DNA from: a plasmid
Length of the DNA stretch: 64,000 bases
Sequence record: NZ_CP049149.1
Reading direction: 5' to 3' (one strand)
The notes under the pieces are model-generated. The model had not been told where the DNA came from and did not search any database. It saw only the letters and a list, made by a program, of their open reading frames with translations. Positions 5,291 to 46,672 of this stretch are shown here, piece by piece (position 1 is the stretch's first letter; every line of letters begins with the position of its first letter). A program made the position numbers and the translations under genes.

Positions 5291-7639
5291 ATGATAACCA
5301 TCGTTAAACGTAACGGTTCAACTGAGCCGCTGTCAGAGGAAAAATATAATCGCGTTGTGATGTGGGGCGTAGAGAACATTCGCAACGTTAGCGCGTCTGC
5401 CATCGCTATGGGCGCAGCCGCAAGCATTTTTGATGGTATGACCACCAGCCAGCTGCATGAGGCTCTGGTGAAGTCAGCTGCCGATTTAATCTCTAAAGAG
5501 ACTCCGAACTATTCCCAGGTTGCGGCGCGTCTGAGCCTGTTCAAGATCCGCAAAGATGCGTTCGGCCAGTACGCTTACCCACACTTCTATCACCACATTG
5601 TGAGCAACGTTAGCCGCAGTGTTTATGATGAAGAGCTGCTGAAATCCTACACTCGTGAGGAAATCGACGAGCTGGGTGCCTACATCAAGCCTATGCGCGA
5701 CGAGTTTTTCAGCTATGCCGCCACCGTTCAGCTGGCCAGCAAGTACCTTGTTCAGAACCGCGTTACTGGTCAGGTTTATGAGGCGCCGCAGCAGCTCTAT
5801 ATGCTGGTGGCCATGTGCCTGTTCCAGAATTGGGAAGATGGCTGTGCGGGCAAATCTCGACTGGAGATGGTCAAAGGCTTCTATGACGTCACCAGTACCT
5901 TCAAACTCTCTCTGCCAACACCCATCATGGCCGGTGCTCGTACTCCGACTCGCCAGTTCTCCAGCTGTGTGCTGATTGAGGCAGAAGACAGCCTGAAAGG
6001 GGTTAGCGCTGCATCTGCTGCGATTATTGACTATGTATCGCGCCGTGCAGGTATTGGCATCGGCTTTGGTCGTCTGCGTGCGCTGGGCAGTGAGATCCGC
6101 AATGGCGAAGCTATCCACACTGGCGTTATCCCGTTCCTGAAACATTTCCAGACCGCAGTGAAGTCTTGCTCCCAGGGCGGCGTTCGTGGCGGCGCGGCGA
6201 CAGCGTACTACCCAATCTGGCACCTCGAAGTTGAGAGCCTTTTGGTAGTGAAAAACAACCGGGGTGTTGAGGAAAACCGCGTCCGTCACCTGGACTATGG
6301 CGTGATGATAAACCGTCTGATGTATCGCCGTCTGGTACGCAACGAAAACATCACTCTTTTCAGCCCACATGATGTACCGGACCTGTACGATGCGTTTTTT
6401 GCCGATCAGGACAAATTTGAAGAGCTGTATGCACAGTACGAAGCAGATGAGAGCATTCGTAAGAAGTCGATTCCGGCTGTGGAACTGTTCTCTACGCTGT
6501 TGCAGGAACGTGCTTCTACTGGCCGCGTGTATATCGCCAACGTTGACCATATGAACGAGCACGGGTCTTTCGATCCGGAAGTTGCGCCGGTTCGCCAGTC
6601 CAACCTCTGCGCGGAGATCACGCTGCCAACCAAACCGCTGGCTTACACTGACGATCCGAATGGTGAAATCGCGCTTTGCACCCTGTCTGCCTTTAACCTC
6701 GGGGCAATCGACTCTCTGGACAGCCTGAAAGATGTCGCGTTCTATGCGGTTGCGGCTCTGGATTCACTGCTGGACTATCAGGACTACCCGCTGGCTGCTG
6801 CCGAAGTTCCGGCAAAAGCACGTCGTAGCCTCGGCATCGGCGTAACCAACTTCGCCTACTATCTGGCCAAGAACGGCTTCAACTACTCCGACGCCGCTGG
6901 CAACCAGCTGGTGCATGAGACGTTTGAAGCGATCCAGTATTACCTCCTCGATGCAAGCTGCCGCCTGGCTGAAGCCAAAGGCGCGTGTGAGTGGTTCTCC
7001 CACACCAAGTATGCGAAGGGGCTGCTGCCTGTAGACCATTACCGCAAGACGCTGGACGCCAATCCAGAAACGTCCTTCGAACTGAAAATGCCGTGGGAAG
7101 AGCTGCGTGGCCGCATTCTCAAGCATGGTCTGCGTAACTCGACGCTGTCTGCCCAGATGCCTTGCGAGACTTCCAGCCAGATCACCAACTCCACCAATGG
7201 CATCGAGCCGCCGCGCGGTCCGGTTTCCGTCAAGTCTTCAAAAGACGGCATTGTGAAGATGGTTGTTCCGGATTTCGAGCAGCTGAAAGACCAGTACGAG
7301 TACCTCTGGGATATGCCGGACAACCACGGCTATCTGACGAAGGTGGCAATCATCCAGAAGTTCTTCGATCAGTCTATCTCGGCCAACACCAACTATGACC
7401 CGACTCGCTTCCCTGGCGACAAGGTTCCAATGATGAAGCTGCTTGAAGACTTGCTCTACGCGTACCAGCAGGGCGTCAAGTCCCTCTACTACCACAATAC
7501 GCGTGATGGCGCTGGCAAGCGCGACGATGAAGAGTCTGCCTCTCCGGAGCCGACTGTGGTGGTCAAGCCCGAACCAGTGGCTGAACCAGAACCCGTTGTT
7601 GAGCGAGAAGAAGAATACGACTGCGGTTGCAAGATCTGA
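5291..7639 (+). CDS. nrdA: ribonucleoside-diphosphate reductase alpha subunit (class Ia)
   Basis: colinear with enterobacterial NrdA: ATP-cone N-terminus, TPTRQFSSCVLIE, CSQGGVRGGAAT, PVRQSNLCAEI, SETSSQITNSTNGIEPPRG, C-terminal CGCKI; ATG 5291 after GGAGGACAC SD. Confidence 0.95.
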   Translation: MITIVKRNGSTEPLSEEKYNRVVMWGVENIRNVSASAIAMGAAASIFDGMTTSQLHEALVKSAADLISKETPNYSQVAARLSLFKIRKDAFGQYAYPHFYHHIVSNVSRSVYDEELLKSYTREEIDELGAYIKPMRDEFFSYAATVQLASKYLVQNRVTGQVYEAPQQLYMLVAMCLFQNWEDGCAGKSRLEMVKGFYDVTSTFKLSLPTPIMAGARTPTRQFSSCVLIEAEDSLKGVSAASAAIIDYVSRRAGIGIGFGRLRALGSEIRNGEAIHTGVIPFLKHFQTAVKSCSQGGVRGGAATAYYPIWHLEVESLLVVKNNRGVEENRVRHLDYGVMINRLMYRRLVRNENITLFSPHDVPDLYDAFFADQDKFEELYAQYEADESIRKKSIPAVELFSTLLQERASTGRVYIANVDHMNEHGSFDPEVAPVRQSNLCAEITLPTKPLAYTDDPNGEIALCTLSAFNLGAIDSLDSLKDVAFYAVAALDSLLDYQDYPLAAAEVPAKARRSLGIGVTNFAYYLAKNGFNYSDAAGNQLVHETFEAIQYYLLDASCRLAEAKGACEWFSHTKYAKGLLPVDHYRKTLDANPETSFELKMPWEELRGRILKHGLRNSTLSAQMPCETSSQITNSTNGIEPPRGPVSVKSSKDGIVKMVVPDFEQLKDQYEYLWDMPDNHGYLTKVAIIQKFFDQSISANTNYDPTRFPGDKVPMMKLLEDLLYAYQQGVKSLYYHNTRDGAGKRDDEESASPEPTVVVKPEPVAEPEPVVEREEEYDCGCKI

Positions 7640-7667: not shown

Positions 7668-7770
7668 CATTTTGTTGCACGCCTTATTTTCACCAATAAG
7701 ATAACAACTTGTTTTGATAGTCATTAAAACAAATTGTTAAAACCATTCGATAACATTCAAAGGGAAACAC

Positions 7771-15903: not shown

Positions 15904-16509
15904 ATGGAAAGAGCAATGATTGCAGCTGAAAAAATCAAAAAGCGAGAGCGAGATGCCTCTCTTCGAGACCTTTGGCGCACTCCCAAATGGTTGTTTATCG
16001 CCATCCAACGATATATAGGCGCCGAGTTCGATGTGGACGTCGCCTGCAACAAGGATAACGCGTTACTGCCCAACTACATCGGCGTTGAACGTGATGCCCT
16101 GAAAAGCAGCTGGGGTGAGCCTGGCACCGTGGCATTTCTAAACCCGCCCTACTCCCGGATATCTCCTTGGATCGACGCGGCCATTCGGGAGCAGGCGCGT
16201 GGCGTAACGACAGTCATGCTGATCCCACAGTCCCTCGATACCCAATGGTATGAACGCGCCACTGAGTGCGCCAACGAGACCGTTATTCTGTCTGGCGGCC
16301 GTGTGGCGTTTGTGGAGCCGGATGTCGAGCTGGGGCTGGTGGAGGTCAACGTGAATCCCGGTGGCAGTATGCTGGTCATCTTCCGTGGGTTTTGTCAGGA
16401 AGCTGGGCATGTCATCAGCAAGATACCGCTGGCGGTGATGAAAAAGCTGGGTGGTTATGATCCTGCCAATGTCATCAGAAAGAAAAGACCAGTTAAGAAG
16501 GCAGCTTGA
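15904..16509 (+). CDS. phage-type DNA N6-adenine methyltransferase (Dam-like)
   Basis: LWRTPKWLF, NPPY motif (FLNPPYSRISPW), VTTVMLIP typical of phage Dam MTase family. Confidence 0.8.
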   Translation: MERAMIAAEKIKKRERDASLRDLWRTPKWLFIAIQRYIGAEFDVDVACNKDNALLPNYIGVERDALKSSWGEPGTVAFLNPPYSRISPWIDAAIREQARGVTTVMLIPQSLDTQWYERATECANETVILSGGRVAFVEPDVELGLVEVNVNPGGSMLVIFRGFCQEAGHVISKIPLAVMKKLGGYDPANVIRKKRPVKKAA

Positions 16510-16523
16510 TACCAGTCTGAGAG

Positions 16524-16592
16524 TGTTTCAGAACCTGCTTCCGTATATATAAATAACTAAGTACTAATTATTAATATATACAGAAACAGGCT
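16524..16592. repeat. large imperfect palindrome element, copy 1 (promoter/operator-like)
   Basis: TTCAGAACCTGCTTCCGTATATATAAATA...ATATATACAGAAACAGG; TTCAGA-N16-TATAAA gives sigma70-like spacing; near-identical copy at 44602-44656. Confidence 0.5.
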
Positions 16593-16708
16593 TTTAAAGT
16601 CTGTGTTTCTGAACCCACTCCCAGACCGATTTACACCTCCAGAACTCTCTGGAACCCCTCTCCAGACGCTCTAGAATCGTTTTTAAAGACACAGTAAGGA
16701 AAACTATC

Positions 16709-16939
16709 ATGGCATACCCGACGAACGTCGTAGCGCTCGTTGAGAGCGATTTTCTGGCCAAAGCCCGTGACATGATGAAAGATCGCGAAAAGGCTTTCAG
16801 TCTGTACGAATGGTCACTCAAATGCCTGCACGCAGGCGAGCATCGCGAGTTGCTGGAGCAGCTCTTAGGCGAACTTATCAATGAGGTGTTTGCACTCAAT
16901 GTCCAGCTTCATGGGCGAGATAATAACCAAACAGTTTAA
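16709..16939 (+). CDS. hypothetical protein (76 aa)
   Basis: ATG with AAGGAAAA SD downstream of palindrome element. Confidence 0.4.
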   Translation: MAYPTNVVALVESDFLAKARDMMKDREKAFSLYEWSLKCLHAGEHRELLEQLLGELINEVFALNVQLHGRDNNQTV

Positions 16940-17470: not shown

Positions 17471-17524
17471 GTGCGCACACGCGCGAGGAAAAAAATCGTC
17501 GCGGCGCGCGTTTCTGGAGCCACC

Positions 17525-18118
17525 ATGACGACGAAGACACCAGCCCGACAAAAAACTGGCTGCCGGCCAAAGTCCAAACGAAACCATCCCCAGACCCGAT
17601 TCAAAACTCCCGCAGTCGACTTCAATCCCCAGCTTAAAACCGTAAAAGTGTTCAGTGACGGCTCCTGCCTCAAAAATCCGGGCGGGCCTGGTGGCTACGG
17701 CATTGTTCTCCAGTATCGCGATGAAGAGCGCGAGCTTTCTGATGGCTTCCACAGCACCACCAACAACCGCATGGAAATGATGGGCGCGCTGATGGCTCTG
17801 GAGCGGCTCAAGTACCCCTGTAACGTCATTCTGTATTCGGACAGCCAGTATCTCAAAAACGGCATGACGCTCTGGATGAAAGGCTGGAAGCGCAACGGCT
17901 GGGTGACGTCAGAGAAGAAGCCAGTGAAGAATGTTGATTTGTGGAAACGACTCGATGCAGCGGCCAGTCGACATAACGTTCGCTGGCAATGGGTCAAAGG
18001 CCATGCCGGACATCGCGAGAATGAGATCTGCGACCGGCTGGCAAAGATAGCTGCTTTCGCCGCAGCGGATACCCCACACAAACGAGATATCGGTTTTTTG
18101 GCTCAAAATGATAAGTAG
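17525..18118 (+). CDS. rnhA: ribonuclease HI
   Basis: ~55-60% identity to E. coli RnhA by eye ([48 protein letters not shown]); ATG 17525 with GGAG SD gives ~45-aa basic N-terminal extension not present in host enzyme. Confidence 0.85.
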
Positions 18119-19612: not shown

Positions 19613-19707
19613 GGTTTAACCGTTATGACGCGTTTGCCCCCCTCTTCTGAATTGTCAGAATAAAGCCACCAAGAAAACAAATTATTTTAACAATTAAGGA
19701 AAAACAC

Positions 19708-20286
19708 ATGTGTGATAAATGCACCGCCGCTAACGCTGAAGTAAAGAAGATCATTAATGAAGTCGGGGCTAAAAAACTCGTAGGGATGCTTGATTCTATA
19801 ACTGGTCATGGTGACGCTCATCCGCTGGAACGCATCATGGCCATCGTCCAGGTCATGGACTTATTTGATGAACCAATGAAAATCCTGATGCTTGCTCGTC
19901 ACTTTGGCGGGGCGTATGTGGAAGAGCATGAACGTGCCAATAAACTGCAGGCAACTCTGGACATGATGAGCGAACCAAAATGCGCGCCGGCGCCAGAGCT
20001 CTCCGGAGACAATATGGGCATTGAAAGCAAAGAGCGGGAGATCGCCAGCCTTAAGTCTTCTTTAGGCATGTTAATTACCGCCTTTAAACTAATGGCAACC
20101 CATAACGGTTTCAAAATGCCAGAGCTAACCGGCGATGAACATCCCGCTGCTATTCGCCAGCTACTTGGTGCCATGACGGATAATATGGATGAAGCGAAGA
20201 GCCCTATCGAAGATATGATGCGAGAACTTGCCCACCGCCACGATCTAAATGACCAGCCGCACAAGATGCAGCAAGTCAGCCACTGA
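19708..20286 (+). CDS. hypothetical protein, paralog A of a duplicated cassette (192 aa)
   Basis: ~50% identical over full length to 28346-28915 (N-terminal MCxxC, conserved C-terminus KCAP...FKMPE...DMMRELAHRHDL); preceded by promoter-like repeat. Confidence 0.6.
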   Translation: MCDKCTAANAEVKKIINEVGAKKLVGMLDSITGHGDAHPLERIMAIVQVMDLFDEPMKILMLARHFGGAYVEEHERANKLQATLDMMSEPKCAPAPELSGDNMGIESKEREIASLKSSLGMLITAFKLMATHNGFKMPELTGDEHPAAIRQLLGAMTDNMDEAKSPIEDMMRELAHRHDLNDQPHKMQQVSH

Positions 20287-20298
20287 ACCTGAAATAGC

Positions 20299-20318
20299 AA
20301 GGGGGCGAGAGCCCCCTT
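20299..20318 (+). terminator. GC hairpin after paralog A
   Basis: AAGGGGGC GAGA GCCCCCTT; same structure follows paralog B. Confidence 0.4.
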
Positions 20319-20414
20319 CCCCTCCTCCGTAGCCCTCTGTATAGATCTTTTACGCCTTTTCTTATCTGAGATAATAAAACCAATAGGAAAACAAATTGTT
20401 TATATGGTGGGATT

Positions 20415-20630
20415 ATGAGTGCTGCGCTTTCTGTCCTTGAGTCTTTTGCTTCGAACACCGGTATCGACCACAGCAAAGAGATGAACGTCATCCATGCAAT
20501 CGTGGCCGAGTGCGAGAAAGGGATCGCGTTCATGCACCAGGTTCACGACTTCACTTATGGCGACGAACGTCACTGGAATAAGTGTTTAAGATTTGTACTA
20601 CGTACATTGGAAGTGGAAATTATTTGGTAG
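20415..20630 (+). CDS. small hypothetical protein (71 aa)
   Basis: follows promoter-like repeat; N-terminus homologous to truncated ORF at 29035. Confidence 0.45.
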   Translation: MSAALSVLESFASNTGIDHSKEMNVIHAIVAECEKGIAFMHQVHDFTYGDERHWNKCLRFVLRTLEVEIIW

Positions 20631-20691
20631 GGATATAAGATCATATCCCTAAGCTCTTTTAAGAAAAAATTTCTTAATAACCTAATGTAAT

Positions 20692-23600
20692 TTAAATCCT
20701 TCCTCCAACCCCTTTAAATTTTTCGATAAACGCCCCAATTTTTTGGAATACGGTCTGCTTTTTCGTTTTGTACTGAGGATTCAGTGGACTGAGTTTTGGT
20801 AGCGTCTCATTTAACTCCGTCCCATTTTCGGTAGCATATTCCCGTTTGAGTGATGTACGGATATAGCGCCTTGCCGCCTCTTCATTGAGGTTTTCTTCCT
20901 TAATCAACGCTTCCGCTTCCTGTTGCTGTTCACGCTGAGCATAGGTAAAGAATGCATCAATGATACTGGCCTTATCCGGCATGTCATCAAGGTTAGTTTG
21001 CTGAATAAAGTCAACAATCAGACCTTCTTTGGCACGGTTGCCCAGACTTGACCGGATTAAGCGTCGGACCTCTTCAGTCAGGGCTTCTTTACCCTTTTTC
21101 TGACGGTTGTGGTCAAAAATCAGGCCCAGAATGTAGTCCAGGTTAATCTCTTGCGACTTGAGCAGGTCAATTTCAAACACCACGTCATCCCAGTCCGTGG
21201 TTGATGTATCCCTGTCGTTTGCTGCTTTTTCACGTCGCTGCCAGTCCCGGATATCATTGTAAGCTGAGCGGTAGTCCTGAACTTTACGTTCGGCAGGGAG
21301 GCGAATGGTTTGTAATTCAGCAAATTTTTCATCATCCACGTAGTGCTCTGCTTTAAAGGTTTCTACCGCTTCCGGGTCACTAATATCAACCTTCTGCAGG
21401 GCTTTCAGCGTGGCAAATTCATCGTAGTTTTGCAGGATGTTTTCTGCCCGCAGATATTCACCAAACAGTTTGACGAAGGCTTTTTTCTCTTTTTCACTGT
21501 CGATACTGGCAGGGTCAGGGAAGCGCTGCTCCAGCTCCGAAACAATAGACATAAAACCTCGTTTAGCTTCGCCGGTTGCCGCATCGCTAAAGCCCTGCAT
21601 GTACTCTTCGTAGCTTTTTTCCAGTACCACATTCTTGGTGTTTTTGTCGCCAAAAAGTGTAATGGCATCAATGGTGGGACGCTCCAGGTCCCTGAAAGTC
21701 ACGATATTGCCGAAGGTTTTGGTTGCATCATAGATACGGTTGGTGCGTGAGAATGCCTGCATCAGACCGTGATAACGCAGGTTTTTGTCAACGAACAGAG
21801 TATTGAGAGTCGGAGCATCAAAGCCAGTCAAGAACATTCCCACCACGATGAGAAGGTCAATATCCTGATTTTTCACTCGTTGAGCTAAATCGCGGTAGTA
21901 GTTCTGGAAACCGTTACTGTCGGTGCTGAAATTGGTTTTAAAGTGATTGTTATAGTCATCAATGGCTGAATCCAGGAATTCCTTTGCGCTGCTGTTCATT
22001 GCACTGGTATCAAAACTTTCGTCGGTAATATCACCAATGGCGCTTTGCTCTTCATTAGCAGCAAAAGAGAAGATAGTTGCAACCCGAAGGCGTTTATAGC
22101 TGCCTGATTTTTTTGCTGCTTCTTCCTGTAGTACTTTAAACGTCGAGTAATAAGCTTTTGCCGCTTCCACACTGCTAACTGCTAACATGGCGTTAAAGCC
22201 CTTAGCTCCCGGGAAGGTTCGGTGCGTTTTCTGACGGAAGTTATTGAGAATGTATTGCGTTATTTCCTGGATACGCAGTGGGTGTAAAAATGCCTGTTGG
22301 TTTTCAGCCGCGCTGAGTTTTTTCTCATCAGTTTCCGTTTCAAGAGACTTAAACTGTGGGCGGACATCGTTATAGTCCACCTTAAACTTCAGCACTTTTT
22401 CATCACGAATCGCATCAGTAATGACGTAAGAATGTAATTCACGCCCGAAGACGCTGGCGGTGGTTTCTGCCCCCAGTGCATTTTCCGGGAAAATAGGCGT
22501 ACCAGTAAAACCAAACTGATAAAAGCGTCTGAATTTCTTTTTGAGGTTTTTCTGGGCCTCACCAAACTGGCTGCGGTGACACTCATCAAAGATAAACACC
22601 ACCTGCTGCTGATAGACGGGCAGGTCAGCTTCGGCTTTCATCAGATTATTGAGTTTCTGAATGGTTGTGACGATAATTTTGTTATCGTCCTTATCCAGGT
22701 TTCTTCTGAGGCCTGCTGTATTATCCGAACCATTGACACTGTCCGGAGAGAAGCGCTGATACTCCTTCATGGTCTGGTAATCGAGGTCTTTCCTGTCGAC
22801 CACGAAGAAGACTTTATCGATAAAGTCCAGCTCAGTAGCCAGACGTGCGGCCTTAAAGCTGGTCAGGGTTTTTCCTGACCCTGTGGTATGCCAGATAAAT
22901 CCACCGCTTTCGGGTTTTGACCAGTTCTTCGCTTTAAAAGAGCTGTTGATTTTCCAGAGAATGCGCTCGGTGGCGGCAATCTGATAGGGGCGCATGACGA
23001 GCAGCGTCTGGCTGCTGTCAAACACGCTGTAATTAAACAGAACATTCAGCAGAGTATGCTTCTGGAAGAAAGTGGCGGTAAAGTCCTTCAGGTCCTTAAT
23101 CAGAGTGTTATCCGACTTCGCCCAGTTCATGGTGAAATCAAAGCTGTTTTTATCCCGCTTAGTGGTACTGGCAAAGTACCGGGTATCGGTTCCGTTAGAT
23201 ATCACAAACAGTTGCAGGTATTTAAACAGAGAGTTGTCGCTGTTAAAGCTTTCCTTACTGTAACGGTGTATCTGGTTAAAGGCTTCACGAATCGCCACGC
23301 CGCGCTTTTTGAGTTCGATTTGCACCAGCGGCAGGCCGTTGACCAGAATCGTAACATCATAACGGTTAGCGTGTGAGCCGGTCTGTTCAAACTGCTGAAT
23401 GACCTGCACCTTATTGCGCAGCAGGTTCTTTTTATCTATCAAATAGATGTTTTCCAGACGACCATCATCAAACGTAAAATCACAGATATAGTCGATATGG
23501 ATTTTACGGGTTTTGTCCAGGCTGCTGTCACTGGGGCTGTCCAGATATTGCTCTGCGAAGCGCCGCCATTCACTTTCGTTAAACACCACACCATTAAGAC

Positions 23601-23808
23601 GCTGAAGCTGGTCCCGCACATTCGCCAGCATCGCAGTCGGTGACTTAACGGAGATAAACTCATAACCCTGATTAAGAAGATCCTGAATCAGCGCCCGCTC
23701 AAGGTCCGATTCGCTCTGGTAGCTGTCACCGGTATCCATAACTTTTGTGTATTTATCAAGGACGATAAAGTTATTGGATTCAGCAATAGTGTGTGTTTGA
23801 TGAGTCAT
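20692..23808 (-). CDS. hsdR: type I restriction enzyme R subunit
   Basis: SF2 translocase motifs WHTTGSGKT (Walker A), [10 protein letters not shown] (DEAH/DECH box), TGTPI, C-terminal helical domain; 1038 aa; low GC. Confidence 0.9.
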
Positions 23809-23929
23809 AGCGCATCCTTTGTGCCGCCTGGCAAGGGCCGGAAGGGAGTTAAGAGTGACTTCCGGCGTGTAAAAAATAGTCTATATACTGACCGGGTGTT
23901 AAGGTGGCCCGATCGGTAGCAATGGTCAA

Positions 23930-25198
23930 TTAATTACTGACAGTTTCAGGTTTCGGGAAACTGAAAAGTAAATCACGGTAGTATTCGTATTGTTTCTGGC
24001 GCAACTCGATTTCACGCGGGAGACCTTCAGTGATGGAGTTGGTCAGTGTGTCGAATTTATCCAGAATCCGAACGATTTCAGACTGGATGGCAAGGGATTT
24101 TTCCGGATTGTCCGGGCAGGGGATTGGGATTTTCAGTTTGTTTAAAACGGATTGTGTTTGGCTTGGTACTCCTCCTGCTTGGTTCATTTCGCCAAGGCCA
24201 ACCGTCGTTAAGAAGTAGTAAAGATACTTTGGCCTAATTTGTGCTTCATCAATTTCCGTATAAAAAATGGTGTCAACGGTCCAGAATGGAACATCGATGA
24301 AAAATAAATTACCAAGCGAGCCTTTTCTCGGAATTAAGACTGAAGGCTTATTATAGGCATAGGTATCTACATATCGCATGATTCCACCTGAACCGTAAAC
24401 AGGGAACTCGCCTTCGCTGAGAGATTTATGATCCTTGCCATTTCTGATGCGAGCCAAATCACTCAATGGCAACCACTCAACCTCAACCCCATCCAGCAAT
24501 TTTTCCAGATAAATAGGTTTTTCCTGCTCCTCATCAAAACTCAGCAACTGGTCGCGATAGTAGTTGTACTGCTTTTTGCGCATGGTAAGTTCAGCTGTAA
24601 GTTCAGCTGTAAGTTCAGCTGTAAGTGCAGTAAACTTATCCAGAATCCGGACGATTTCAGACTGGATAGCAAGGGACTTGTCCGGTTTATTCGGACAAGG
24701 TATAGGGATTTTGAATCCTCCCATTACTGCTGAGTTCAAGTTGTTGATGGTTGAGCTATTCAACATTTCATCGAGATATTTTTGAAAAATATCACTTGTT
24801 AAAACGTGAAATAAATAACGCGGATTTAATTTTTCATCGCATCTGACAACACCCATAAATCCGCCAAAGTAGTAGTCAATATCTGATTCAATGTAAGCAA
24901 CTTTTCCAACATGTTCACGGCTACCACTTGCTGCGCTTATCAGTATGTCGTCCTTATATAGTTTTTGCGAATCCTTTACTTTGGTGTCAAACTTCACCAG
25001 TTTGACATCATTTAAATTTAAACAATTACTAGACAAAGTGATATTGTTAGCACGAAGGACCCTGTAACCTTGACCATCTGCGCTTTCATTCGATTTGCTG
25101 TAAGTTAAACCACGTATATATTTCGCGACTTCTCCCAGAGTCTTCCACTCAACAACAACTCCATCTAGCAATTTGTCTAGATAACTCAGCTTGCTCAT
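23930..25198 (-). CDS. hsdS: type I restriction-modification specificity subunit (two TRDs, IC-family central repeat)
   Basis: two target-recognition halves each followed by [15 protein letters not shown]; central [14 protein letters not shown] and conserved [10 protein letters not shown] / [10 protein letters not shown] blocks; start overlaps hsdM stop. Confidence 0.9.
24584..24631 (-). repeat. 12-bp tandem repeat encoding (TAEL)3 in HsdS central spacer
   Basis: GTAAGTTCAGCT x3 plus degenerate 4th unit on plus strand = ACAGCTGAACTT codons on minus strand. Confidence 0.8.
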
Positions 25199-26751
25199 GA
25201 CTGCACCTCACGGCCTTCAATTTCAGCCACAATTACATCGATATCCTTACGTAACTGATCGATTTTGCCGACGGTGATTTTCAGTTCAGTATTCAGTTCG
25301 GAGATATCAATTATTTCTCGGGTATTCATGGCTTCGACGTAGCTGCTGACTGACAGGTTATAGTTATTGGCGGCAACTGTTTCATGAGGGATAGTTTTAG
25401 CGAGGTGGTCAATATCCGCTTTGCTGGCAAAGGCCTGCATAATCTGTTCGATATGACCATCAGTCAGGATATTGTTATTGGTTTCTTTCTTGAACAAACC
25501 GCTGGCATCAATAAACTGAACACTGGTGTCAGTTTTATGTTTAGACAGCACCAGAATGTTAACGGCAATGGTGGTGCCGAAGAACAGGTTTGGCGCGAGT
25601 GAAATCACCGTTTCAACATAGTTGTTGTCGACCAGGTACTGGCGGATTTTCTGCTCTGCACCGCCACGGTAGAAAATACCGGGGAAGCAGACTATTGCTG
25701 CACGTCCTTTAGCAGACAGGTAGTTCAGCGCATGTAGTACAAACGCAAAGTCAGCTTTTGATTTCGGGGCCAGTACGCCAGCTGGAGCAAAGCGCTCATC
25801 GTTAATCAGGGTCGGGTCGTCACTGCCAATCCACTTAACCGAGTACGGAGGGTTAGAGACAATCGCATCGAACGGTTTTTCATCGCCAAAGTGAGGCTCA
25901 GTCAGGGTATTCCCCAGTCTGATATCAAATTTGTCGTAGTTGATGTTATGTAGGAACATGTTCATACGCGCCAGGTTAAAGGTTGTATGATTTATCTCCT
26001 GACCATAAAAACCTTCTTCAATGATATGGTTATCAAAGTGTTTTTTCGCCTGAAGCAGCAGTGAACCGGAGCCAGCTGCAGGGTCATAGATTTTGTTGAC
26101 GTGAGTCTGACCGTGCATCGCAAGCTGAGCAATCAGCTTAGAGACGTGCTGAGGTGTGAAGAACTCCCCGCCAGACTTACCGGCATTTGCCGCATAGTTA
26201 GAAATCAGGAACTCGTAGGCATCACCAAACAGGTCAATCTGGTGCTCGTTAAAATTCCCCAGTTTTAGCCCCTCAACGCCTTTGAGAACGGCGGCAAGAC
26301 GGGTGTTTTTGTCTTTGACTGTGTTACCCAGTCGATTGCTGGTCGTATCGAAATCGGCGAACAGGCCTTTGATGTCGGCCTCCGACGGGTAGCCGTAGGC
26401 AGAGCTTTCTATAGCGACGAAGATACTGTTTAAATCAGCATTTAGCCTGTCGTTGGTGTTCGCTTTAGCGGCAACGTTGCAGAACAGCTGGCTCGGGTAG
26501 ATGAAATAGCCTTTAGTCCTGATGGCATCGTCTTTGATGTCATCGGTAATGATGCTGTCATCAAGTGCTGCATAATGTATGCTCTCATCCCCTGCTTCCA
26601 TGTAGCTGGAAAAATTCTCACTGATGAAGCGGTAGAAAAGGGCACCGAGTACATACTGTTTAAAATCCCATCCATCTACGGAGCCTCTGACATCATTGGC
26701 AATGGCCCAGATTTGGCGGTGTAGCTCTGCACGCTGCTGAAGGCTTGTCAT
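25195..26751 (-). CDS. hsdM: type I R-M N6-adenine DNA methyltransferase subunit
   Basis: N-terminal HsdM domain ([37 protein letters not shown]), AdoMet motif [11 protein letters not shown], motif IV NPPY. Confidence 0.9.
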
Positions 26752-26999
26752 TTTGTATCCTGTTGTATGATTCTTAAGTACTGTTATTGGCCCGATTTTA
26801 TCGCAATTTCATATTGATGACAGGCTTTGTATGTCATACGTTGCACTGAGAGTTCGTTTGCCCGGTTGTGTAGCCAACACTCTTTCAGTCAGGCCAGTAG
26901 AAACGTTGTGCTGACGATAAATACTGAAGCCCCAATACTATCGGGGCTGAACGTTCAGTCGGTGAGAATTTCTTCATCCGTATCCATTGTGGATGGTGA

Positions 27000-28200
27000 T
27001 CAGGGCGAGAGCGTGAACAAATTGTTAAATTGACTTCAATTCAGCCAGCCCTGCGTCCAGTACCTTTTCCAGATATGGGCTGCTCATGCCCGCAAATTGC
27101 TGCTTCTTCCGTAAGCTTGCCTTACGGCTGGTTTCGGCTCGCAGCATGTTTTGCGCCATGTGTCGTGCACAGGCCAATATTTGAGGGGCATCACCTCGAT
27201 ATATCTGGCAGGCATCCTCATTCATCACGACATCCAGTACCCAATGCAGTTGGTTTTCGATGCCCCAATGACTGCGCACCCCGTTGGCAAATTGCTCTTC
27301 GGTTAGTTCAGCCGAGCTGATGTAGTAACGGTACTCTAGCGATTCATGCCCCTTGCTGTCGCACCGATAACCGATGGCAACCCCCAAGCTGGATAAACCT
27401 TTCCAGGCCGGGAACTGCTCGGCTATCGCCCCAACTGGCATGACATGGTACTCACGGATCTCTATTCGCCCCCGTGAGCGCTCTATCTTGGCCTGATGGC
27501 TACCTTCTCGGGCCTGCAGCGCCATGGCCTCACGTACTGCGCGATATAGGGTTTCTTGGTTGCCTTTGACTGCCAGTAGATAGTCGCCTCCCTTATCGAC
27601 TATCTTGGCAGCAATCTCGGTTTGGCAACCCATAGCATCAATGGACACCAAACAACCACGGACATCCAGCAACACCAGTAATTCCGGAATAGCAGTGATT
27701 TCATTGGACTTAGTGTCTGTCTTGACCTGTCCCAGCACCACGCCATTGGCGCTGGCAAACGCGCTGACCATGTGGATGGTGGATTGCCGATCCTCACGGT
27801 TATATGAACTACGTAGAACCTTGCCATCAATAGCAATCAATTCACCACTGACGCGTTTGTGGACGACTTTCATCCATTTGAGGAAACAAGCCTGAAATTC
27901 GTCTGGCGCCAGCCGGGATATCACTCTGGCAATGGTGTCGTGCACAGGAAGTCCGTTGGGAAACAAGCCTTTATCCTGGAGCCAGCGGCAATGGGCCTGA
28001 CCGAAGTCTTCAATATCTTCCCAGCCTTCACATCCACCAATGACGGCGCATACCGTCAGGAACACGATGTCGAACAAGGGGTAAGCAATTTTTGCCGACT
28101 GACGCGGGTCCTGAAGATCAGCAAAAATTTCAGCAAAGGCATCCAGTTGCATTGATGTACTCCCAGAAAAGGAAGTATCAGATCACAACTGATCCCCAGG
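27000..28200 (-). mobile_element. ISAs1-family insertion sequence (boundaries approximate)
   Basis: transposase ORF fills the element; terminal inverted repeats not confidently identified; sits between hsdM promoter region and paralog B promoter repeat. Confidence 0.45.
27025..28152 (-). CDS. ISAs1-family (H-repeat-associated) transposase
   Basis: N-terminus MQLDAFAEIFADLQDPRQSAKIAYPLFDIVFLTVCAVIGGCEGWEDIEDFG characteristic of H-repeat/ISAs1 transposases; DDE region present. Confidence 0.8.
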   Translation of the reverse strand: MQLDAFAEIFADLQDPRQSAKIAYPLFDIVFLTVCAVIGGCEGWEDIEDFGQAHCRWLQDKGLFPNGLPVHDTIARVISRLAPDEFQACFLKWMKVVHKRVSGELIAIDGKVLRSSYNREDRQSTIHMVSAFASANGVVLGQVKTDTKSNEITAIPELLVLLDVRGCLVSIDAMGCQTEIAAKIVDKGGDYLLAVKGNQETLYRAVREAMALQAREGSHQAKIERSRGRIEIREYHVMPVGAIAEQFPAWKGLSSLGVAIGYRCDSKGHESLEYRYYISSAELTEEQFANGVRSHWGIENQLHWVLDVVMNEDACQIYRGDAPQILACARHMAQNMLRAETSRKASLRKKQQFAGMSSPYLEKVLDAGLAELKSI

Positions 28201-28345
28201 TCAAAATGTACTGTGCTCGGTTAAAAAACGTTCATGATCTTGCCCTGCCCTGCTCTCCCTTAAACACAAACTTTCTTGTCATTACGTATAATGTGATAAT
28301 AAGACATATAAGAAAACATTTTGTTTAAACTAATAAGTAAATGAC

Positions 28346-28915
28346 ATGTGTCTGAATTGCAAAGATAAATACGCAGAGATGAATGCAAAATTTGAAGAAA
28401 TGGAAGTCGTGGATCTGGTAAAAATGCTTGGTATAGTGCGCGGCACAGAGCAGTCTTCAGTGCCTGAAAGACTGATTACTGTCGTTAAATTCGCTTCAAT
28501 TTTTGATGACCCAATGGAAATCATTGGCCTGGCGCACCAACTAGGTGTTCACTATCTGGCAGAGAAAGATCGCGCCGATAAAATGCAATCCACACTGAAT
28601 ATGGTCAGCGAGCAGAAATGCGCACCGAGCGCCAGCAAAACTGACGAAACTGTCGCCAGTAAAGACCGCGAAATTGCCGGTCTGAAATCTTCGATGGCCA
28701 TACTTATTTCTGCCTTTAAGTTGATGACCACCCAGACAGGTTTCAAAATGCCTGAGATGAACAATGAAGATCCGATGGCTGTGCGTGAACTGTTGGGCGC
28801 GCTGGCCGACCAGCTGGACACCAAGAAAAGCCGCCTGGAAGACATGATGCGCGAGCTAACCCACCGACACGATCTGACTAAACAGCCGCACAAAGCGCAG
28901 CACGCGAATCACTAA
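28346..28915 (+). CDS. hypothetical protein, paralog B of duplicated cassette (189 aa)
   Basis: homolog of 19708-20286; own promoter-like repeat at 28295-28330. Confidence 0.6.
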   Translation: MCLNCKDKYAEMNAKFEEMEVVDLVKMLGIVRGTEQSSVPERLITVVKFASIFDDPMEIIGLAHQLGVHYLAEKDRADKMQSTLNMVSEQKCAPSASKTDETVASKDREIAGLKSSMAILISAFKLMTTQTGFKMPEMNNEDPMAVRELLGALADQLDTKKSRLEDMMRELTHRHDLTKQPHKAQHANH

Positions 28916-28932
28916 TCGCTTGACTCAATGAC

Positions 28933-28952
28933 GGGGGCGAAGCCCCCTTTTC
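28933..28952 (+). terminator. rho-independent terminator
   Basis: GGGGGC GAA GCCCCC + TTTTC. Confidence 0.5.
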
Positions 28953-29034
28953 ATGCCTGTAAATCCTCCTACTATGCCTTTTGAGCTCTGAAAAATAACA
29001 CCAATAAGAAAACAAATTGTTTAATGCTTTTATT

Positions 29035-29124
29035 ATGAATACAGCCCTTTCTATTGTTGATGACATTAGTCTGAACACTGAAATCGACTATCGGCAGGAG
29101 ATGGGTGTTATGGAGCCAGTCTAG
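29035..29124 (+). pseudogene. truncated copy (29 aa) of the 20415-20630 small gene
   Basis: MNTALSIVDDISLNTEIDYRQEMGVM aligns with MSAALSVLESFASNTGIDHSKEMNVI then terminates; downstream DNA is a lower-GC insertion. Confidence 0.35.
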
Positions 29125-29271
29125 ACGACGATACCATTCTGCTATTCTTCAAACACGGAAACATCCACTTTCTGGTTGGCTCTCAAGCTACTAGGTTATT
29201 CATGTCCGTAGGTGGAAATAAGTGTGCCAACAGATGTTATGGTAAATAAGAGTGATGTGAAGCTATGAATC

Positions 29272-29775
29272 ATGGGGAGAAATACACGGATGGAAGTCGA
29301 GATATGTGGTGTTGCAAATGTGCCGGAACTAGCCCATCTTTTTGTTGAAATGGAGGATTATTACTTCGGTCGCGGCGTTGTCAGCTATGAGGATATGAGC
29401 GCTTATCTTGCTGACAAAGTATTCTCTACTTATTCAGGCGTTACGGTTGTTGGTGCTCGTAAAAAAGGAGAGCTTGTTGGATTTGCCACTTTTTCGCTGA
29501 TGTTCCCCGCGCCGCTTTGTTCCGGTCAGGCATTTATGAAGGAGATCTTTATATCAGAAGCGGTACGAGGCCAAGGTGTCGGTAAATCGCTAATTAGGTT
29601 TATCGCAAACTTTGCCCTCAAACACGGTTGTTCACGCCTTGACTGGACTGCGGAGAAGTCCAATCCGAAAGCCGGAGAGTTTTACTTGTCCATTGGTGCC
29701 ACTCTAATTGAAGAAAAACAGTACTTTAGGCTGGAGGGGAAGGATCTCGAGACGTTTTCTTCACTCGCTGAGTGA
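29272..29775 (+). CDS. GNAT-family N-acetyltransferase
   Basis: acetyl-CoA motif A RGQGVGKSLIRFIANFA; ~45% GC; alternative ATG at 29290 has better SD. Confidence 0.7.
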   Translation: MGRNTRMEVEICGVANVPELAHLFVEMEDYYFGRGVVSYEDMSAYLADKVFSTYSGVTVVGARKKGELVGFATFSLMFPAPLCSGQAFMKEIFISEAVRGQGVGKSLIRFIANFALKHGCSRLDWTAEKSNPKAGEFYLSIGATLIEEKQYFRLEGKDLETFSSLAE

Positions 29776-29866
29776 GTATCAGAATAGGGCGCACTTTTGA
29801 TGTTATGATTATTTCTCGTCAATTTGTTAATAGTTAACGTAAAGATACGGAGAGTGGAATAAACAA

Positions 29867-30271
29867 ATGACAATTTTAGTGACGATACAGAGCCAACTTG
29901 TTGTTGGTGAGGCGCAGGTGATAAAGAGCTTGGCTCCTGAAGGGATGTTGGCAGCCGTTTTCGAGGACGATGGTGAAACCGGGTATTTCTACGCTCTTGA
30001 TGAGTCTGTCGACGGCAACGCCATTCAAGACGCAGTACATATTTACAACGTAGAAGATATTGCGGATGGAGATATCCCTTCTGACGTTAAAATCGGCTGG
30101 TCTCAAGATAGTCAGAAGTGCGTGCTTCTGATCAACGGTTATCCCTACGGGGTGTTCGATTTCGTGGGCAAAAACGGGTATTGCAGAAGTGGCTTTCCTC
30201 CACCGATTAATGATACATGGTCGGCATCCGGTCATGAGTGGAGCGACGCAGTGGATGATTTTTTTCGATGA
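29867..30271 (+). CDS. hypothetical acidic protein (134 aa) downstream of GNAT
   Basis: GGAGAGTGG SD; the fully overlapping minus-strand ORF has no RBS. Confidence 0.5.
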   Translation: MTILVTIQSQLVVGEAQVIKSLAPEGMLAAVFEDDGETGYFYALDESVDGNAIQDAVHIYNVEDIADGDIPSDVKIGWSQDSQKCVLLINGYPYGVFDFVGKNGYCRSGFPPPINDTWSASGHEWSDAVDDFFR

Positions 30272-30524
30272 ATCCAAGCAAGCCTAGCATCTGCCGTTAT
30301 GCTTCTAATATTAAGCACTTATATGGGAGGTCGCTTCTTGCATCGATATATCTATACTGTTTGCGACATTTCGGTTGAGTGTTTGATAAGGTTCCATTGA
30401 TAATAAAACCCAAATGGTAAAGACCGTTCGTAAAGTAAGGCCAATCTTGTGGCCTTAAACAAATTGTTTTCACCCACTAGTTATTATCCCATCATTTAAA
30501 ATTGCCCTTTTCTGAACGCACGGA

Positions 30525-30544
30525 TACTGTTTGTATATACAGTA
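30525..30544. promoter_or_regulatory. LexA (SOS) box candidate
   Basis: TACTGTTTGTATATACAGTA = CTGT-N8-ACAG matching 18/20 of consensus TACTGTATATATATACAGTA, 18 nt upstream of ATG 30562. Confidence 0.5.
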
Positions 30545-30561
30545 TTCAGGGTGGAAAAAAG

Positions 30562-30828
30562 ATGGGCGGCAAAGACAGCAACTACCAGATCGTTTATCGC
30601 GGCGAGACGCTTCAGTGCCTCAAGCCTGGGCAATATGTCTTCTTTCAGCGGCTGAAAGAGTATGGCGGAGGATTCTGGTTGGGAAAAACCTACGAAGATG
30701 GCTTTGAGTTTGTGCTGGAGTGGCCAACCTCTCTGAGTGAGGGGCTGCTGTATCTGATGTCACTTGAGCGCATGGAGGCGAACTATCTTGAGTTTGTTAA
30801 TGACATCGATGATTTTAAGCTGACCTGA
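30562..30828 (+). CDS. small hypothetical protein (88 aa), putatively SOS-regulated
   Basis: ATG 30562 behind LexA-like box. Confidence 0.5.
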   Translation: MGGKDSNYQIVYRGETLQCLKPGQYVFFQRLKEYGGGFWLGKTYEDGFEFVLEWPTSLSEGLLYLMSLERMEANYLEFVNDIDDFKLT

Positions 30829-44309: not shown

Positions 44310-44576
44310 ATGACGTTGACCGACAAACAAAAAGACATCATCAAAACCATCAATTTAGGCCATGAGCGTGGGCATCTGCTCGATCTGGACGAGCTACTGG
44401 AAGTGCTGCCGTACAAAACGACCAAACAGAGTATGCAGTTCTCGATCCGCGCACTGGTGAAGAAGGGGCTGGTGGAGAAAGGAATGTGCCGCCAGCGCGG
44501 TGATTCCGGCTACCACCGTCGCACGCTGGGACTGACCACGTTAGGTCGTGCCAGAGCCAAATTACTGGTGATGTAA
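44310..44576 (+). CDS. winged-helix-like small protein (88 aa)
   Basis: helix-turn-helix-like segment SMQFSIRALVKKGLVEKG; basic C-terminus. Confidence 0.4.
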   Translation: MTLTDKQKDIIKTINLGHERGHLLDLDELLEVLPYKTTKQSMQFSIRALVKKGLVEKGMCRQRGDSGYHRRTLGLTTLGRARAKLLVM

Positions 44577-44601
44577 GTCGGTCTGGGAGCCAGTTTGAGA
44601 G

Positions 44602-44656
44602 CCTGCTTCCGTATATATAAATACTAAGTGACTTATTAAATATATACGGAAGCAGG
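44602..44656. repeat. large palindrome element, copy 2 (promoter/operator-like) upstream of terminase
   Basis: perfect 16-bp arms CCTGCTTCCGTATATA / TATATACGGAAGCAGG with 23-nt AT-rich loop; flanked by TTGAGA and TCTGAA; copy 1 at 16524-16592. Confidence 0.5.
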
Positions 44657-44771
44657 TTCTGAATACTCCCCAGCCCGGTTTTAAACACCCAGAAAACAAA
44701 TTGGTTAGGCACTGAATTAAACAAGTTGTTTAGGAGCGCAAGGATGCGCTCTGAGTGTTTTAGAGGGATCT

Positions 44772-45413
44772 ATGACTGTAGAAAAAGACGAGAGCAAAAC
44801 TCGCCTGACACCAGCTGAGTGGGCAGAAGCCGAAGCGAAGTGGACTTCCGGTGAATACACACTCTCCAAGCTGGAGGAAGAGTACGGCATTCGTCGTGAA
44901 ACGCTCTCCAGACATTTCAAAAAGCGTGGATTAGAGAAAGGCGCGGACTCCGTTGGGAAGATGGTGCGCGAGTCGCTTAAATCCGACGCAGAGCTGCGTG
45001 CGAAGGCGCGTGCAGAGAAAATCGAAGAGCGCCGGACTCGTTACGACGATTGGGCGTTCGCACTCGGTCGTATGGTGATGCATGAGGTGGCCACAGCTAA
45101 GAAGGACGGCAGGCCACTGGCAGCCATCGAAGATGACCTGAAGAGTCTCCAGCGTGCCAGCGGCACACTCGCTAAGTGCTTCGAAATATCCTCGAAAGCA
45201 CTTGGTATGGATCGCGTGGAGAACGAGGACGACGAAATCCCGAGCCTGGTATTTGGCGAACTTACGCCTTCCCAGGTGGCGCAGCTGCGTAAGGAAGATG
45301 ATGAGCCGGATCTGATTGATGACGATCTGCTTGAGTCACTCGAAGAGGAAGCACTGAGCGAAGCTGAGGGCGATTCTGACGCGTCTGGTGATGAAAGTGA
45401 TGGGAGCGTCTAA
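44772..45413 (+). CDS. terminase small subunit (putative)
   Basis: immediately upstream of TerL with stop/start 2 nt apart; HTH-like N-terminus; acidic C-terminus. Confidence 0.5.
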   Translation: MTVEKDESKTRLTPAEWAEAEAKWTSGEYTLSKLEEEYGIRRETLSRHFKKRGLEKGADSVGKMVRESLKSDAELRAKARAEKIEERRTRYDDWAFALGRMVMHEVATAKKDGRPLAAIEDDLKSLQRASGTLAKCFEISSKALGMDRVENEDDEIPSLVFGELTPSQVAQLRKEDDEPDLIDDDLLESLEEEALSEAEGDSDASGDESDGSV

Positions 45414-45415
45414 CT

Positions 45416-46672
45416 ATGGCCATCCCGTCGTCTCTGAGTCTCGTACAGCTGCATTCTGGGCAGATGCAAGTCTTCCAGTCGCCACATCGTTTCAAAGTGG
45501 TGTGTGCGGGTCGACGCTGGGGTAAATCCCGGTTGTCGATCTCCACCATCATCCGCGCGGCAGCCAAAGAGAAGAAGCAACGTGTCTGGTACGTCGCACC
45601 GACGTACCAGATGGCTCGCCAGATCTTGTGGGATGACCTGCAGGAAGTTCTGCCGCGTAAATGGGTTCGTAAGAAAAACGACACCACGATGACCATCGTG
45701 CTGAAGAACGGCTCTGAAATCGCGCTGAAAGGTGCGGATAAGCCCGATACGCTTCGTGGTGTGGCACTGCACTTTGTGGTGCTCGATGAATTTCAGGATA
45801 TGAAGCCGGACACCTGGTACAAGGTACTGCGTCCGACACTGTCCTCTACCCGTGGCGGTGCGCTGATCATCGGTACGCCAAAAGGCTTCTCCGAGTTCCA
45901 CAAGCTGTGGACTATCGGTCAGAACAAAGATTTGCAACGCAAGGGGCAGTGGAAGAGCTGGCAGTTCGTTACGGCTGATTCTCCGTTCGTACCGAGCGCG
46001 GAAATCGAAGCAGCGAAGAACGATATGGACCCTAAATCGTTCGCACAGGAATACCTGGCCAGCTTCGAGAACATGTCCGGGCGCGTCTACTATCCGTTCG
46101 ACCGCAACGTGCATGTTAAGCCGCTCCAGTTCAATCCGAAGCTGCCGATCTGGGTGGGGCAGGACTTTAACATCGACCCAATGTCCTCGGTCATCCTCCA
46201 GCCACAGCCAAACGGCGAACTCTGGGCTGTCGATGAGCTGGTGCTGTTTTCATCCAACACCGCGGAAGTGTGTGACGAACTGGAGCGCCGTTACTGGCGC
46301 TGGAAGTCACAGGTCACGATCTTCCCTGACCCGGCTGGCGCCTACCGCCAGCACGCGCGCGGTGAATCGGACGTGGACATCTTCAAGGAAAAGGGCTTCC
46401 TGCGCGTCGATTATCCGAAGAAGCACCCGCCCATTGCAGACCGTGTGAACGCTGTGAACCGTATGCTGATGAGCGCTTCTGGTGAAACCCGACTGTATAT
46501 CGACCCGAAGTGCAAACACCTGATCGACTCGCTTGAGAAGGTTATCTATAAACCCGGCTCCCGCGATATGGATAAGACGGGTGGCATCGAGCACAGCGCA
46601 GACGCATTGGGTTATCCAGTTCATCGTAGGTATCCGGTGAAAAATCGTGTTATTCTTGGCGGTTCAAGGTAA
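45416..46672 (+). CDS. terminase large subunit
   Basis: Walker A VVCAGRRWGKS, Walker B HFVVLDE, C-terminal RNase H-like nuclease region. Confidence 0.85.
   Translation: MAIPSSLSLVQLHSGQMQVFQSPHRFKVVCAGRRWGKSRLSISTIIRAAAKEKKQRVWYVAPTYQMARQILWDDLQEVLPRKWVRKKNDTTMTIVLKNGSEIALKGADKPDTLRGVALHFVVLDEFQDMKPDTWYKVLRPTLSSTRGGALIIGTPKGFSEFHKLWTIGQNKDLQRKGQWKSWQFVTADSPFVPSAEIEAAKNDMDPKSFAQEYLASFENMSGRVYYPFDRNVHVKPLQFNPKLPIWVGQDFNIDPMSSVILQPQPNGELWAVDELVLFSSNTAEVCDELERRYWRWKSQVTIFPDPAGAYRQHARGESDVDIFKEKGFLRVDYPKKHPPIADRVNAVNRMLMSASGETRLYIDPKCKHLIDSLEKVIYKPGSRDMDKTGGIEHSADALGYPVHRRYPVKNRVILGGSR

Follow-up and report, generated by a model that had tools for sequence, protein, structure and literature searches.

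Two large palindromes in the window (the whole 64-kb stretch of plasmid DNA that was analysed) are two of the three copies of a lineage-specific boundary element of the SSU5/pHCM2/pMT1-type phage-plasmids. The element is strongly non-random and family-specific, and we tentatively favour its interpretation as an insulator hairpin, resembling an intrinsic terminator, at the end of each major gene block. Support for this interpretation is good for copy 3, which lies outside the window, and reasonable for copy 1; for copy 2 of the window's lineage the interpretation is doubtful. The main rival is that the palindrome is a DNA site recognised by a protein in one form or another, whether regulatory, centromere-like, origin or pac, a possibility to be taken seriously even though we consider it unlikely.

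Anatomy and family of the palindromes

The initial annotation was right that a large palindrome is present in two copies. The half-site CCTGCTTCCGTATATAT has four matches in the window, forming two inverted pairs: 16534-16550(+) with 16574-16590(-, 2 mismatches), and 44602-44618(+) with 44640-44656(-). Four matches compare with 0.07 expected by chance, and none of 100 shuffles reaches four. In the core of copy 1 (16534..16590, + strand) the right arm reads ATATATACAGAAACAGG and the centre (16551-16573) is AT-rich. The arms of the copy 2 core (44602..44656, + strand) are perfect, as had been claimed, and are 17 bp long rather than 16 bp; with their flanks they extend to 24 nt at 92%. The centre of copy 2, AAATACTAAGTGACTTATTAA, includes the mini-palindrome TAAGTgACTTA and is not symmetric. 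Both copies fold far better than shuffled sequences, with z = -5.2 to -9.7 as RNA and z = -6.2 and -8.1 as DNA.

The motifs TTCAGA/TTGAGA and TCTGAA had been described as flanking both copies. On the left they do adjoin the arms directly, as TTCAGAA (16527-16533) in copy 1 and TTGAGAG (44595-44601) in copy 2. On the right, TTCTGAA abuts the arm in copy 2 only (44657-44663); in copy 1 the motif is 17 nt more distant (16607-16613). A further inverted repeat on the outside, of the general form GTCTGRGAG ... CTCCCAGAC, had been missed. It pairs GTCTGAGAG (16515-16523) with CTCCCAGAC (16618-16626) at copy 1 and GTCTGGGAG (44581-44589) with CTCCCCAGCC (44666-44675) at copy 2, so that each element is about 100 bp long. 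The extended copy 1 (16515..16626, + strand) thus runs from the outer repeat through TTCAGAA, the core, CTTTT (16591-16595), a 17-nt lineage-specific spacer and TTCTGAA to the second outer repeat; the extended copy 2 (44581..44675, + strand) has the outer repeats, TTGAGAG, the core and TTCTGAA. A known RNA family was rejected as the identity of the element, since Rfam gave no match above the gathering threshold anywhere in the window, the generic hairpin matches all being far below it.

By BLAST, both flanks are found in SSU5-like phage-plasmids only (Salmonella phage SSU5, E. coli phage Cyrano/pLF82 and Klebsiella phage-plasmids), and the window is itself from an SSU5-like phage-plasmid. The copy 1 region matches 796 plasmids in PLSDB, from Klebsiella, Escherichia, Enterobacter, Yersinia (pMT1), Salmonella (pHCM2-like), Citrobacter and Cronobacter, the best match being a Cronobacter sakazakii plasmid with 99.7% identity. 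The relatives carry a third palindrome per genome, ahead of the DnaB/primase block and outside the 64-kb window; in SSU5 the three copies are at 78304-78360 (after dam), 103263..18 (before terS) and 33458-33513 (before the DnaB/primase block). Matches are present in 260 of 5426 complete E. coli genomes (~5%), with a median of 6 places per matching genome, that is, 3 palindromes read on both strands. Because 1335 of the 1339 E. coli places are plasmid-borne and there are three copies per genome, a host repeat of the REP, ERIC or MITE type was rejected. Matches to the palindrome alone, in pMT1 and two large E. coli plasmids, were traced to copy 2 or copy 3 in its ordinary context, and the matches listed for the patterns GTATATATN{15,30}ATATATAC (viral contigs) and CCTGNNTCNGTATATAT (genome contigs) include chance matches. 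Also rejected was a protelomerase target of the N15 type (telRL), as the relatives are circular plasmids with three copies and the centre of the palindrome is asymmetric. We found no description of the element in the accessible literature on phage-plasmids and SSU5.

The three sites were gathered from IMG/VR by way of their neighbouring genes. The palindrome is present at 73 of 75 terS-linked, 70 of 80 dam-linked and 78 of 80 copy 3 loci, and 48 (copy 1), 39 (copy 2) and 50 (copy 3) distinct sequences were compared. The outer 14 nt of the arms (CCTGCTTCYGTATA / TATACRGAAGCAGG) are almost invariant, and the element is ~95% identical across Escherichia, Salmonella, Klebsiella, Enterobacter, Cronobacter and Yersinia. 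The AT-rich centre is variable in sequence and, through TA slippage, in length, giving a main-clade core of 49-57 nt. The tightest constraint is on copy 2 (55 nt in 32 of the 39 distinct sequences), which is also the best conserved and most persistent copy, being retained in Y. pestis pMT1. To the left of copy 3 the genomes have unrelated sequence, and conservation begins exactly at the element. In two distant clades the palindromes are perfect but have other arms, GCCTTGCTCCCATA...TATGGGAGCAAGGC and GCCTAGCTCCCATA...TATGGGAGCTAGGC, separated by spacers of ~49 and ~90 nt. An exact-arm scan for the divergent palindrome matched its own source contig alone, and megablast of the divergent-palindrome locus against plasmids gave no match. 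A recombination breakpoint between the window and SSU5 was rejected, as their identity shows no step at either copy in the window. In the relatives, copy 3 is located at a mosaic junction.

Transcription at the ends of gene blocks

The gene blocks flanking all copies are on the + strand. Ahead of copy 1 is a gene for a Dam-type N6-adenine methyltransferase (15904..16509, + strand; Pfam Dam PF05869, 7e-38), the last of the replication/nucleotide-metabolism block, whose stop codon is 24 nt before the left arm. Copy 1 had been placed between the Dam gene and a non-coding region before rnhA; Pfam bears out both Dam and RNase H (17471-18118), but the intervening region is not non-coding, as the first gene after copy 1 is a conserved 76-aa ORF (16709..16939, + strand; phrog_5343, 4e-50), a homologue of SSU5_089. 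A candidate promoter for this next block, TGGAAC-N16-TAGAAT (16650..16677, + strand), is suggested by the sequence and by its conservation in the separate alignments of copies 1 and 3, and falls below the threshold of a consensus promoter scan. The regions downstream of these two copies have in common the motif TCTCCAG(A/T)CGCT..TA(G/T)(A/G)AT, and the downstream blocks may thus be served by promoters 70-80 nt past copies 1 and 3, with the motif TCTCCAGWCGCT..TAGAAT/TATGAT.

Copy 2 is preceded by the gene for a conserved small protein of 88 aa (44310..44576, + strand; phrog_900), annotated as DNA-binding in Cyrano, with its stop codon 25 nt before the left arm. Pfam and PHROGs gave no functional lead on the small proteins beside the elements. 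The earlier placement of copy 2 upstream of the terminase small subunit holds: it is 116 nt before the gene that is annotated TerS in phage Cyrano (terS, 44772-45413, + strand). With terL (45416-46672, + strand, identified by Pfam), terS starts the structural/late gene block (44772..46672). The interval between copy 2 and terS (44694..44762, + strand) contains two AAACAAnTTGkTT boxes (44694-44706 and 44719-44731), of a family found at early promoters, and a small GC hairpin with GAGTGTTTTA (44733-44762).

The position of the element relative to the upstream gene is closely kept. The left arm follows the stop codon by 23-27 nt in every one of the 39 distinct sequences of copy 2 and in 46 of the 48 of copy 1, and at copy 3 a + strand ORF ends 6-30 nt upstream in 24 of 50, although the upstream gene differs between genomes. 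The transcribed strand forms a stable hairpin with a GC-rich base (z = -5 to -9.7, Cyrano copy 3 included). Directly 3' of it at copy 1 is the U-tract CTTTTAAAG (16591..16599, + strand), and for these two copies together 84 of 98 distinct sequences have at least 4 consecutive T within 10 nt after the right arm (copy 1, 42 of 48; copy 3, 42 of 50). There are no comparable A-runs before the left arm, most being no longer than 3, and the signal thus points rightward alone. Of the functions suggested earlier, the strong terminator or RNase III hairpin is the one that the evidence favours, but the T-runs on the right side alone speak against action in both directions.

A transcript boundary is seen at the orthologous copy 3. 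In RNA-seq data for LF82 (PMC9928086, S1 Table), expression falls from log2 10.42/10.15 at CYRAN_30 to 2.56/2.65 at CYRAN_31, a drop of >100-fold, and in other conditions from 8.61/8.97 to 2.90/2.91. The two genes are both on the + strand and 193 nt apart, and the interval holds the copy 3 palindrome (-41.5 kcal/mol, z = -9.4) followed by TCTTTT; a scan of this interval found no further terminator-like or promoter-like signal. We infer that the hairpin itself causes this boundary and that copies 1 and 2 behave likewise. The same table (PMC9928086) gives just a 3-4-fold drop at copy 2, with low expression, and at copy 1 the upstream gene is silent, hence there is no readable step.

The fall at copy 3 also bears on the idea that the palindrome contains a divergent sigma-70 promoter-operator, which had been proposed because TTGAGA/TTCAGA and TATAAA-like hexamers occur on both strands. 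The hexamers are indeed present, but a promoter role is very improbable. The spacer from TTGAGA to TATAAA is 15 nt, and a consensus scan allowing 16-18 nt found no promoter in either palindrome nor at Cyrano copy 3. The -35-like flank is not conserved in the relatives: copy 2 has TTTAAAGA, ATTAACAG or GTTTATAG at this place, and the sequence beside copy 3 is unrelated. No copy has a leftward gene to serve on the - strand, and expression across copy 3 falls where a promoter should raise it.

Each copy is on the transcribed strand, just past the last gene of a large rightward block and 70-120 nt before the next. In the mechanism that we propose, it would be transcribed by host RNA polymerase exiting the upstream block. 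The RNA is predicted to form a long hairpin: CCUGCUUCCG would pair with CGGAAGCAGG in a GC-rich base, above which come an AU-rich stem and, at the apex, a small stem-loop. At copies 1 and 3 the U-tract directly after the hairpin would then cause the transcription complex to terminate. The next block, with its own promoter, would be insulated from read-through, an effect that may carry the greatest weight in the plasmid (lysogenic) state. Copy 2 of the window's lineage, which has the best hairpin and no U-tract, may pause or block polymerase or may be cut by RNase III, and the small canonical terminator beside terS may complete the stop.

The last point is the centre of another proposal, in which RNase III cuts the ~21-bp perfect duplex (~100 nt with the outer repeat) and there is no true termination. 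Cutting would part the messages of the two blocks or leave a hairpin that protects the 3' end, by analogy with the sites in the T7 early region. As RNA, copy 2 has ~21 contiguous base pairs plus outer pairing, the size of an RNase III substrate, and lacks a U-tract, and the outer inverted repeat lengthens the helix past what a terminator needs. Nevertheless, we think a role confined to processing improbable, since there are U-tracts at copies 1 and 3, copy 1 of the window is mismatched on the + strand, and the size of the drop at copy 3 exceeds the usual effect of processing alone.

The strand asymmetry of wobble pairs is mixed. G·U wobbles, counted for the + and - strands, number 55 vs 2 at copy 3, 20 vs 4 at copy 2 and 17 vs 24 at copy 1, figures that represent few independent events. 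In the + strand RNA of copy 1 of the window, two C·A mismatches weaken the hairpin (-33.5 kcal/mol, against -50.5 kcal/mol for the - strand), and in 29 of the 48 copy 1 sequences it is the - strand that folds better. This preference at copy 1 tells against the terminator reading. So does copy 2, the best conserved copy, in which no T-run of at least 4 follows the element in any of the 39 distinct main-clade sequences, the window included.

A divergent Klebsiella lineage shows the reverse arrangement. Its copy 2 is followed by runs of T5-T8 and the small hairpin beside terS is without a T-run, whilst at its copy 1 a compact GC hairpin and then CTTTTGT stand directly behind a remnant of the palindrome. 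The position thus seems to need a terminator, and the palindrome is able to supply one. The freedom in arm spacing, both within the main clade and in the distant clades, is likewise better suited to a hairpin than to a site for a rigid dimer.

The arms as a possible protein site

Strict conservation of the arms is less easily explained by a hairpin. In the main clade the arms do not covary (score 0.103 vs 0.107 in shuffles, with 337 of 500 shuffles as high); 5 of the 15 arm pairs never vary, and arm positions 5, 6, 8 and 9 vary independently in both arms. The arms therefore behave as conserved sequence and not as structure alone, and this absence of covariation weighs against the terminator reading. 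Ordinary terminators, to our knowledge, are not normally kept at ~95% identity across such genera, and identity of this order across six genera argues against a plain terminator.

The copies also evolve together within genomes. Homogenisation is seen in individual genomes such as 2880329822 and 2600255169, and there are lineages in which the three copies have the same centre, peculiar to that lineage. In the divergent lineage of Klebsiella, the right arm has changed in concert at all three sites, from GAAGCAGG to GAGCCAGG (GAGCA/CAGG in a sub-lineage), and copy 1 has lost its left arm and kept a lone right arm. Such changes imply either recognition of the arm sequence or gene conversion, and the co-evolution fits conversion among the copies as well as co-evolution with a factor that reads the arms. 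The phage-plasmid encodes an exonuclease/recombinase pair, which could drive conversion.

If the arms are duplex or cruciform DNA recognition sites for a phage-plasmid protein, which we regard as unlikely but far from negligible, the candidate readers are those encoded near copy 2: the 88-aa protein, two ParB_N-domain proteins with an ABC-type ATPase alongside, and TerS. The ParB_N-domain proteins are encoded directly upstream of copy 2, and TerS is the most diverged neighbour (53% identity, vs 90% for TerL) in the lineage with the diverged arms. A (TA)n-rich centre, such as this element has, favours cruciform extrusion. By analogy with KorB at OB, the three sites might form a small cis network that silences or activates three operons at a distance; alternatively they might be centromere-like sites, as are the dispersed sopC sites of N15, or lytic origins built like HSV oriS. 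We consider it rather unlikely that the palindromes are a dedicated cis network, read by a protein encoded near copy 2 and controlling three operons, lytic replication or the start of packaging, although such a network would account for the conservation of the arms, their concerted change across loci and the retention of half-sites.

Several features fit poorly with a protein site. The distance from arm to arm varies from 21 to ~90 nt and drifts by TA slippage, so that helical phasing is lost and a rigid dimer contacting both arms is unlikely. Known parS and OB sites are short contiguous palindromes, unlike these arms split by a variable spacer. Candidate promoters are found at different distances from one copy to another and from genome to genome, none of the encoded proteins can be singled out as the binder, and conversion by the phage-plasmid's own recombination enzymes could explain the concerted evolution equally well. 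A protein site also leaves the T-runs and the fixed position after the stop codon unexplained, features that the terminator reading takes in directly.

An origin hairpin or an association with packaging had also been suggested. In the packaging reading, the terminase would recognise and cut copy 2, just upstream of terS, as a pac site, cos site or terminal-repeat boundary, copies 1 and 3 being relics or secondary sites. Besides its position and its persistence, including in pMT1, copy 2 has in its favour that the GenBank records of SSU5 and Cyrano are both linearised at its loop/right-arm boundary. However, this is exactly where assemblers break inverted repeats, and two IMG/VR contigs (L446 and L463) start inside copy 3; the Cyrano record, moreover, is a re-annotated plasmid and not virion-end data. 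The record cuts are therefore not evidence for a packaging end, and no end-mapping data were found in the literature on SSU5 ends and packaging; the LF82 virome ERR8973296 covers Cyrano only ~41x. A cos mechanism cannot be reconciled with three near-identical copies in one genome, and a cos site was rejected on this ground, an argument that does not touch headful pac sites. The nearest characterised relatives of TerL (25-30% identity) are from Jersey-like, Kagunavirus and T5-like phages rather than from lambda- or P2-type cos phages. A packaging role is, on balance, quite improbable.

Known systems and the place of the element among them

The element shares with intrinsic terminators a hairpin that is GC-rich at its base and follows a stop codon on the transcribed strand, a U-tract after copies 1 and 3, and the transcript boundary at the orthologous copy 3. 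It differs in being much longer, with a stem of 17-21 bp plus an apical stem and the outer repeat, in its conservation across genera, in the co-evolution of its copies and in the lack of a U-tract at copy 2. The bacterial intergenic repeats REP/BIME, ERIC and the Correia/NEMIS elements of Neisseria are palindromes of ~50-150 bp that fold in mRNA, where they can act as terminators, make the message more stable or be a target of RNase III or RNase E. The present element is an intergenic palindrome of the same kind; however, those are repeats of host chromosomes in tens to hundreds of copies, whereas this one belongs to one phage-plasmid family and has about three copies at fixed syntenic positions. 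The RNase III sites of T7 are likewise phage-encoded long hairpins between gene blocks of polycistronic transcripts, but they number about ten and have characteristic internal loops, in contrast to three sites with perfect duplexes and U-tracts at two, at which cleavage is putative.

Likenesses to DNA sites can also be drawn. The OB sites of RK2 KorB and the sopC sites of N15 are similarly a few palindromes at the regulatory junctions of plasmid-like replicons with genes for ParB-family proteins, but they are contiguous palindromes of 13-16 bp, whereas the present element, for which protein binding is putative, has two arms of 14-17 bp around an AT-rich spacer of 21-90 nt. HSV oriS and oriL have inverted arms around an AT-rich centre and several intergenic copies per genome; unlike them, the present element has no initiator linked to it, and T-runs and a position after a stop codon are not features of origins.

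If the element is a terminator only, it provides useful annotation and nothing further. If instead a protein reads the arms, the element would count as a new site of regulation or replication, KorB-like or oriS-like, that is specific to the SSU5/pHCM2/pMT1 phage-plasmids. Phage-plasmids of the SSU5/pHCM2/pMT1/pKpn type are common in clinical Enterobacterales and carry resistance and defence cargo, and their regulation is almost unstudied. A three-copy boundary element that parts the plasmid-state genes from the replication, early and late blocks offers a handle on the silence of the plasmid state and on the switch to lytic growth. In practical terms, short-read assemblies break at the palindromes, and reference records owe their arbitrary start to them.

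Probable early promoters and the region before terS

About 12 repeats of one family are spread over 19634-35625, 7687-7722 and 44679-44714 of the window. Its units share one order, running from a sigma-70-like promoter (TTxxxx-N16/17-TGnGATAAT) through AACACC to a palindromic box, GAAAACAAaTTGTTT, which sits directly 5' of the SD/ATG of small genes on the + strand. Exact GAAAACAAaTTGTTT boxes are found at 20389, 29010, 30457, 30886, 32012, 33765, 34673 and 35593. The family probably represents a set of early promoters with one common operator. Two other sets of repeats are iteron-like: short repeats, GGGAAACGGCTGG, with 22-nt spacing at 32788-32847 and a distant copy at 36199-36236, and a 31-nt family at 32091-32152 and 35475-35505.

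Two boxes of the putative operator family lie between the copy 2 palindrome and the terminase small subunit gene, terS, at 44694-44706 and 44719-44731. They are followed on their 3' side by a small GC hairpin, GGAGCGCAAGGATGCGCTCT, and then GAGTGTTTTA (44733-44762), directly 5' of the terS ribosome-binding site; the hairpin is kept in relatives. By analogy, the layout of operator boxes and hairpin recalls a promoter-proximal terminator that might be open to antiterminator control.

Surroundings of the conserved palindromes

Directly 5' of copy 2 is a conserved six-gene block (41156-44576), also present in Y. pestis pMT1, which encodes in order two ParB_N-domain proteins, an ABC-type ATPase and proteins of 84, 299 and 88 aa. 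A factor that binds the palindrome might be encoded in this block.

In the Cyrano phage-plasmid of E. coli LF82, the copy 3 interval (7136-7328 of the Cyrano region L513, Cyrano 31135-31327) separates genes of very different expression. In LF82 lysogens, the operon of parA, a RelE-ParE-like gene and CYRAN_30, 5' of copy 3, is expressed 6-9-fold over prophage background, and the replication block directly 3' of copy 3 is silent (RNA-seq table, PMC9928086).

The palindromes are assembly breakpoints: the SSU5 record (ends L001/L002) and the Cyrano record (ends L003/L004) are both cut within copy 2, and the IMG/VR contigs L446 and L463 begin within copy 3. Record starts in the SSU5-like family are therefore not to be taken for virion ends.

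A possible cargo segment

A type I restriction-modification system, HsdR, HsdS and HsdM (20692-26751, - strand), adjoins a DDE_Tnp_1 transposase (27025-28152, - strand), and the entire 20.6-28.5 kb segment has no counterpart in SSU5. Because paralogous ORFs (19708-20286 and 28346-28915, sharing a 99-nt repeat of 73% identity) bracket the segment, it may be cargo that entered at a duplicated gene. HsdR carries an EcoR124_C domain, and a tandem repeat with a 12-bp unit in mid-HsdS (24585-24630) codes for three copies of TAEL; in EcoR124-type enzymes, the TAEL-type repeat determines how long the spacer in the recognition site is. An 80-nt repeat pair (24054-24133 and 24633-24712) matches the two conserved hsdS halves.

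Elsewhere, the phage-plasmid encodes a protein (37722-38282, - strand) with a full-length Pfam match to Flag1_repress (4e-93), the FljA-like repressor of phase-1 flagellin.
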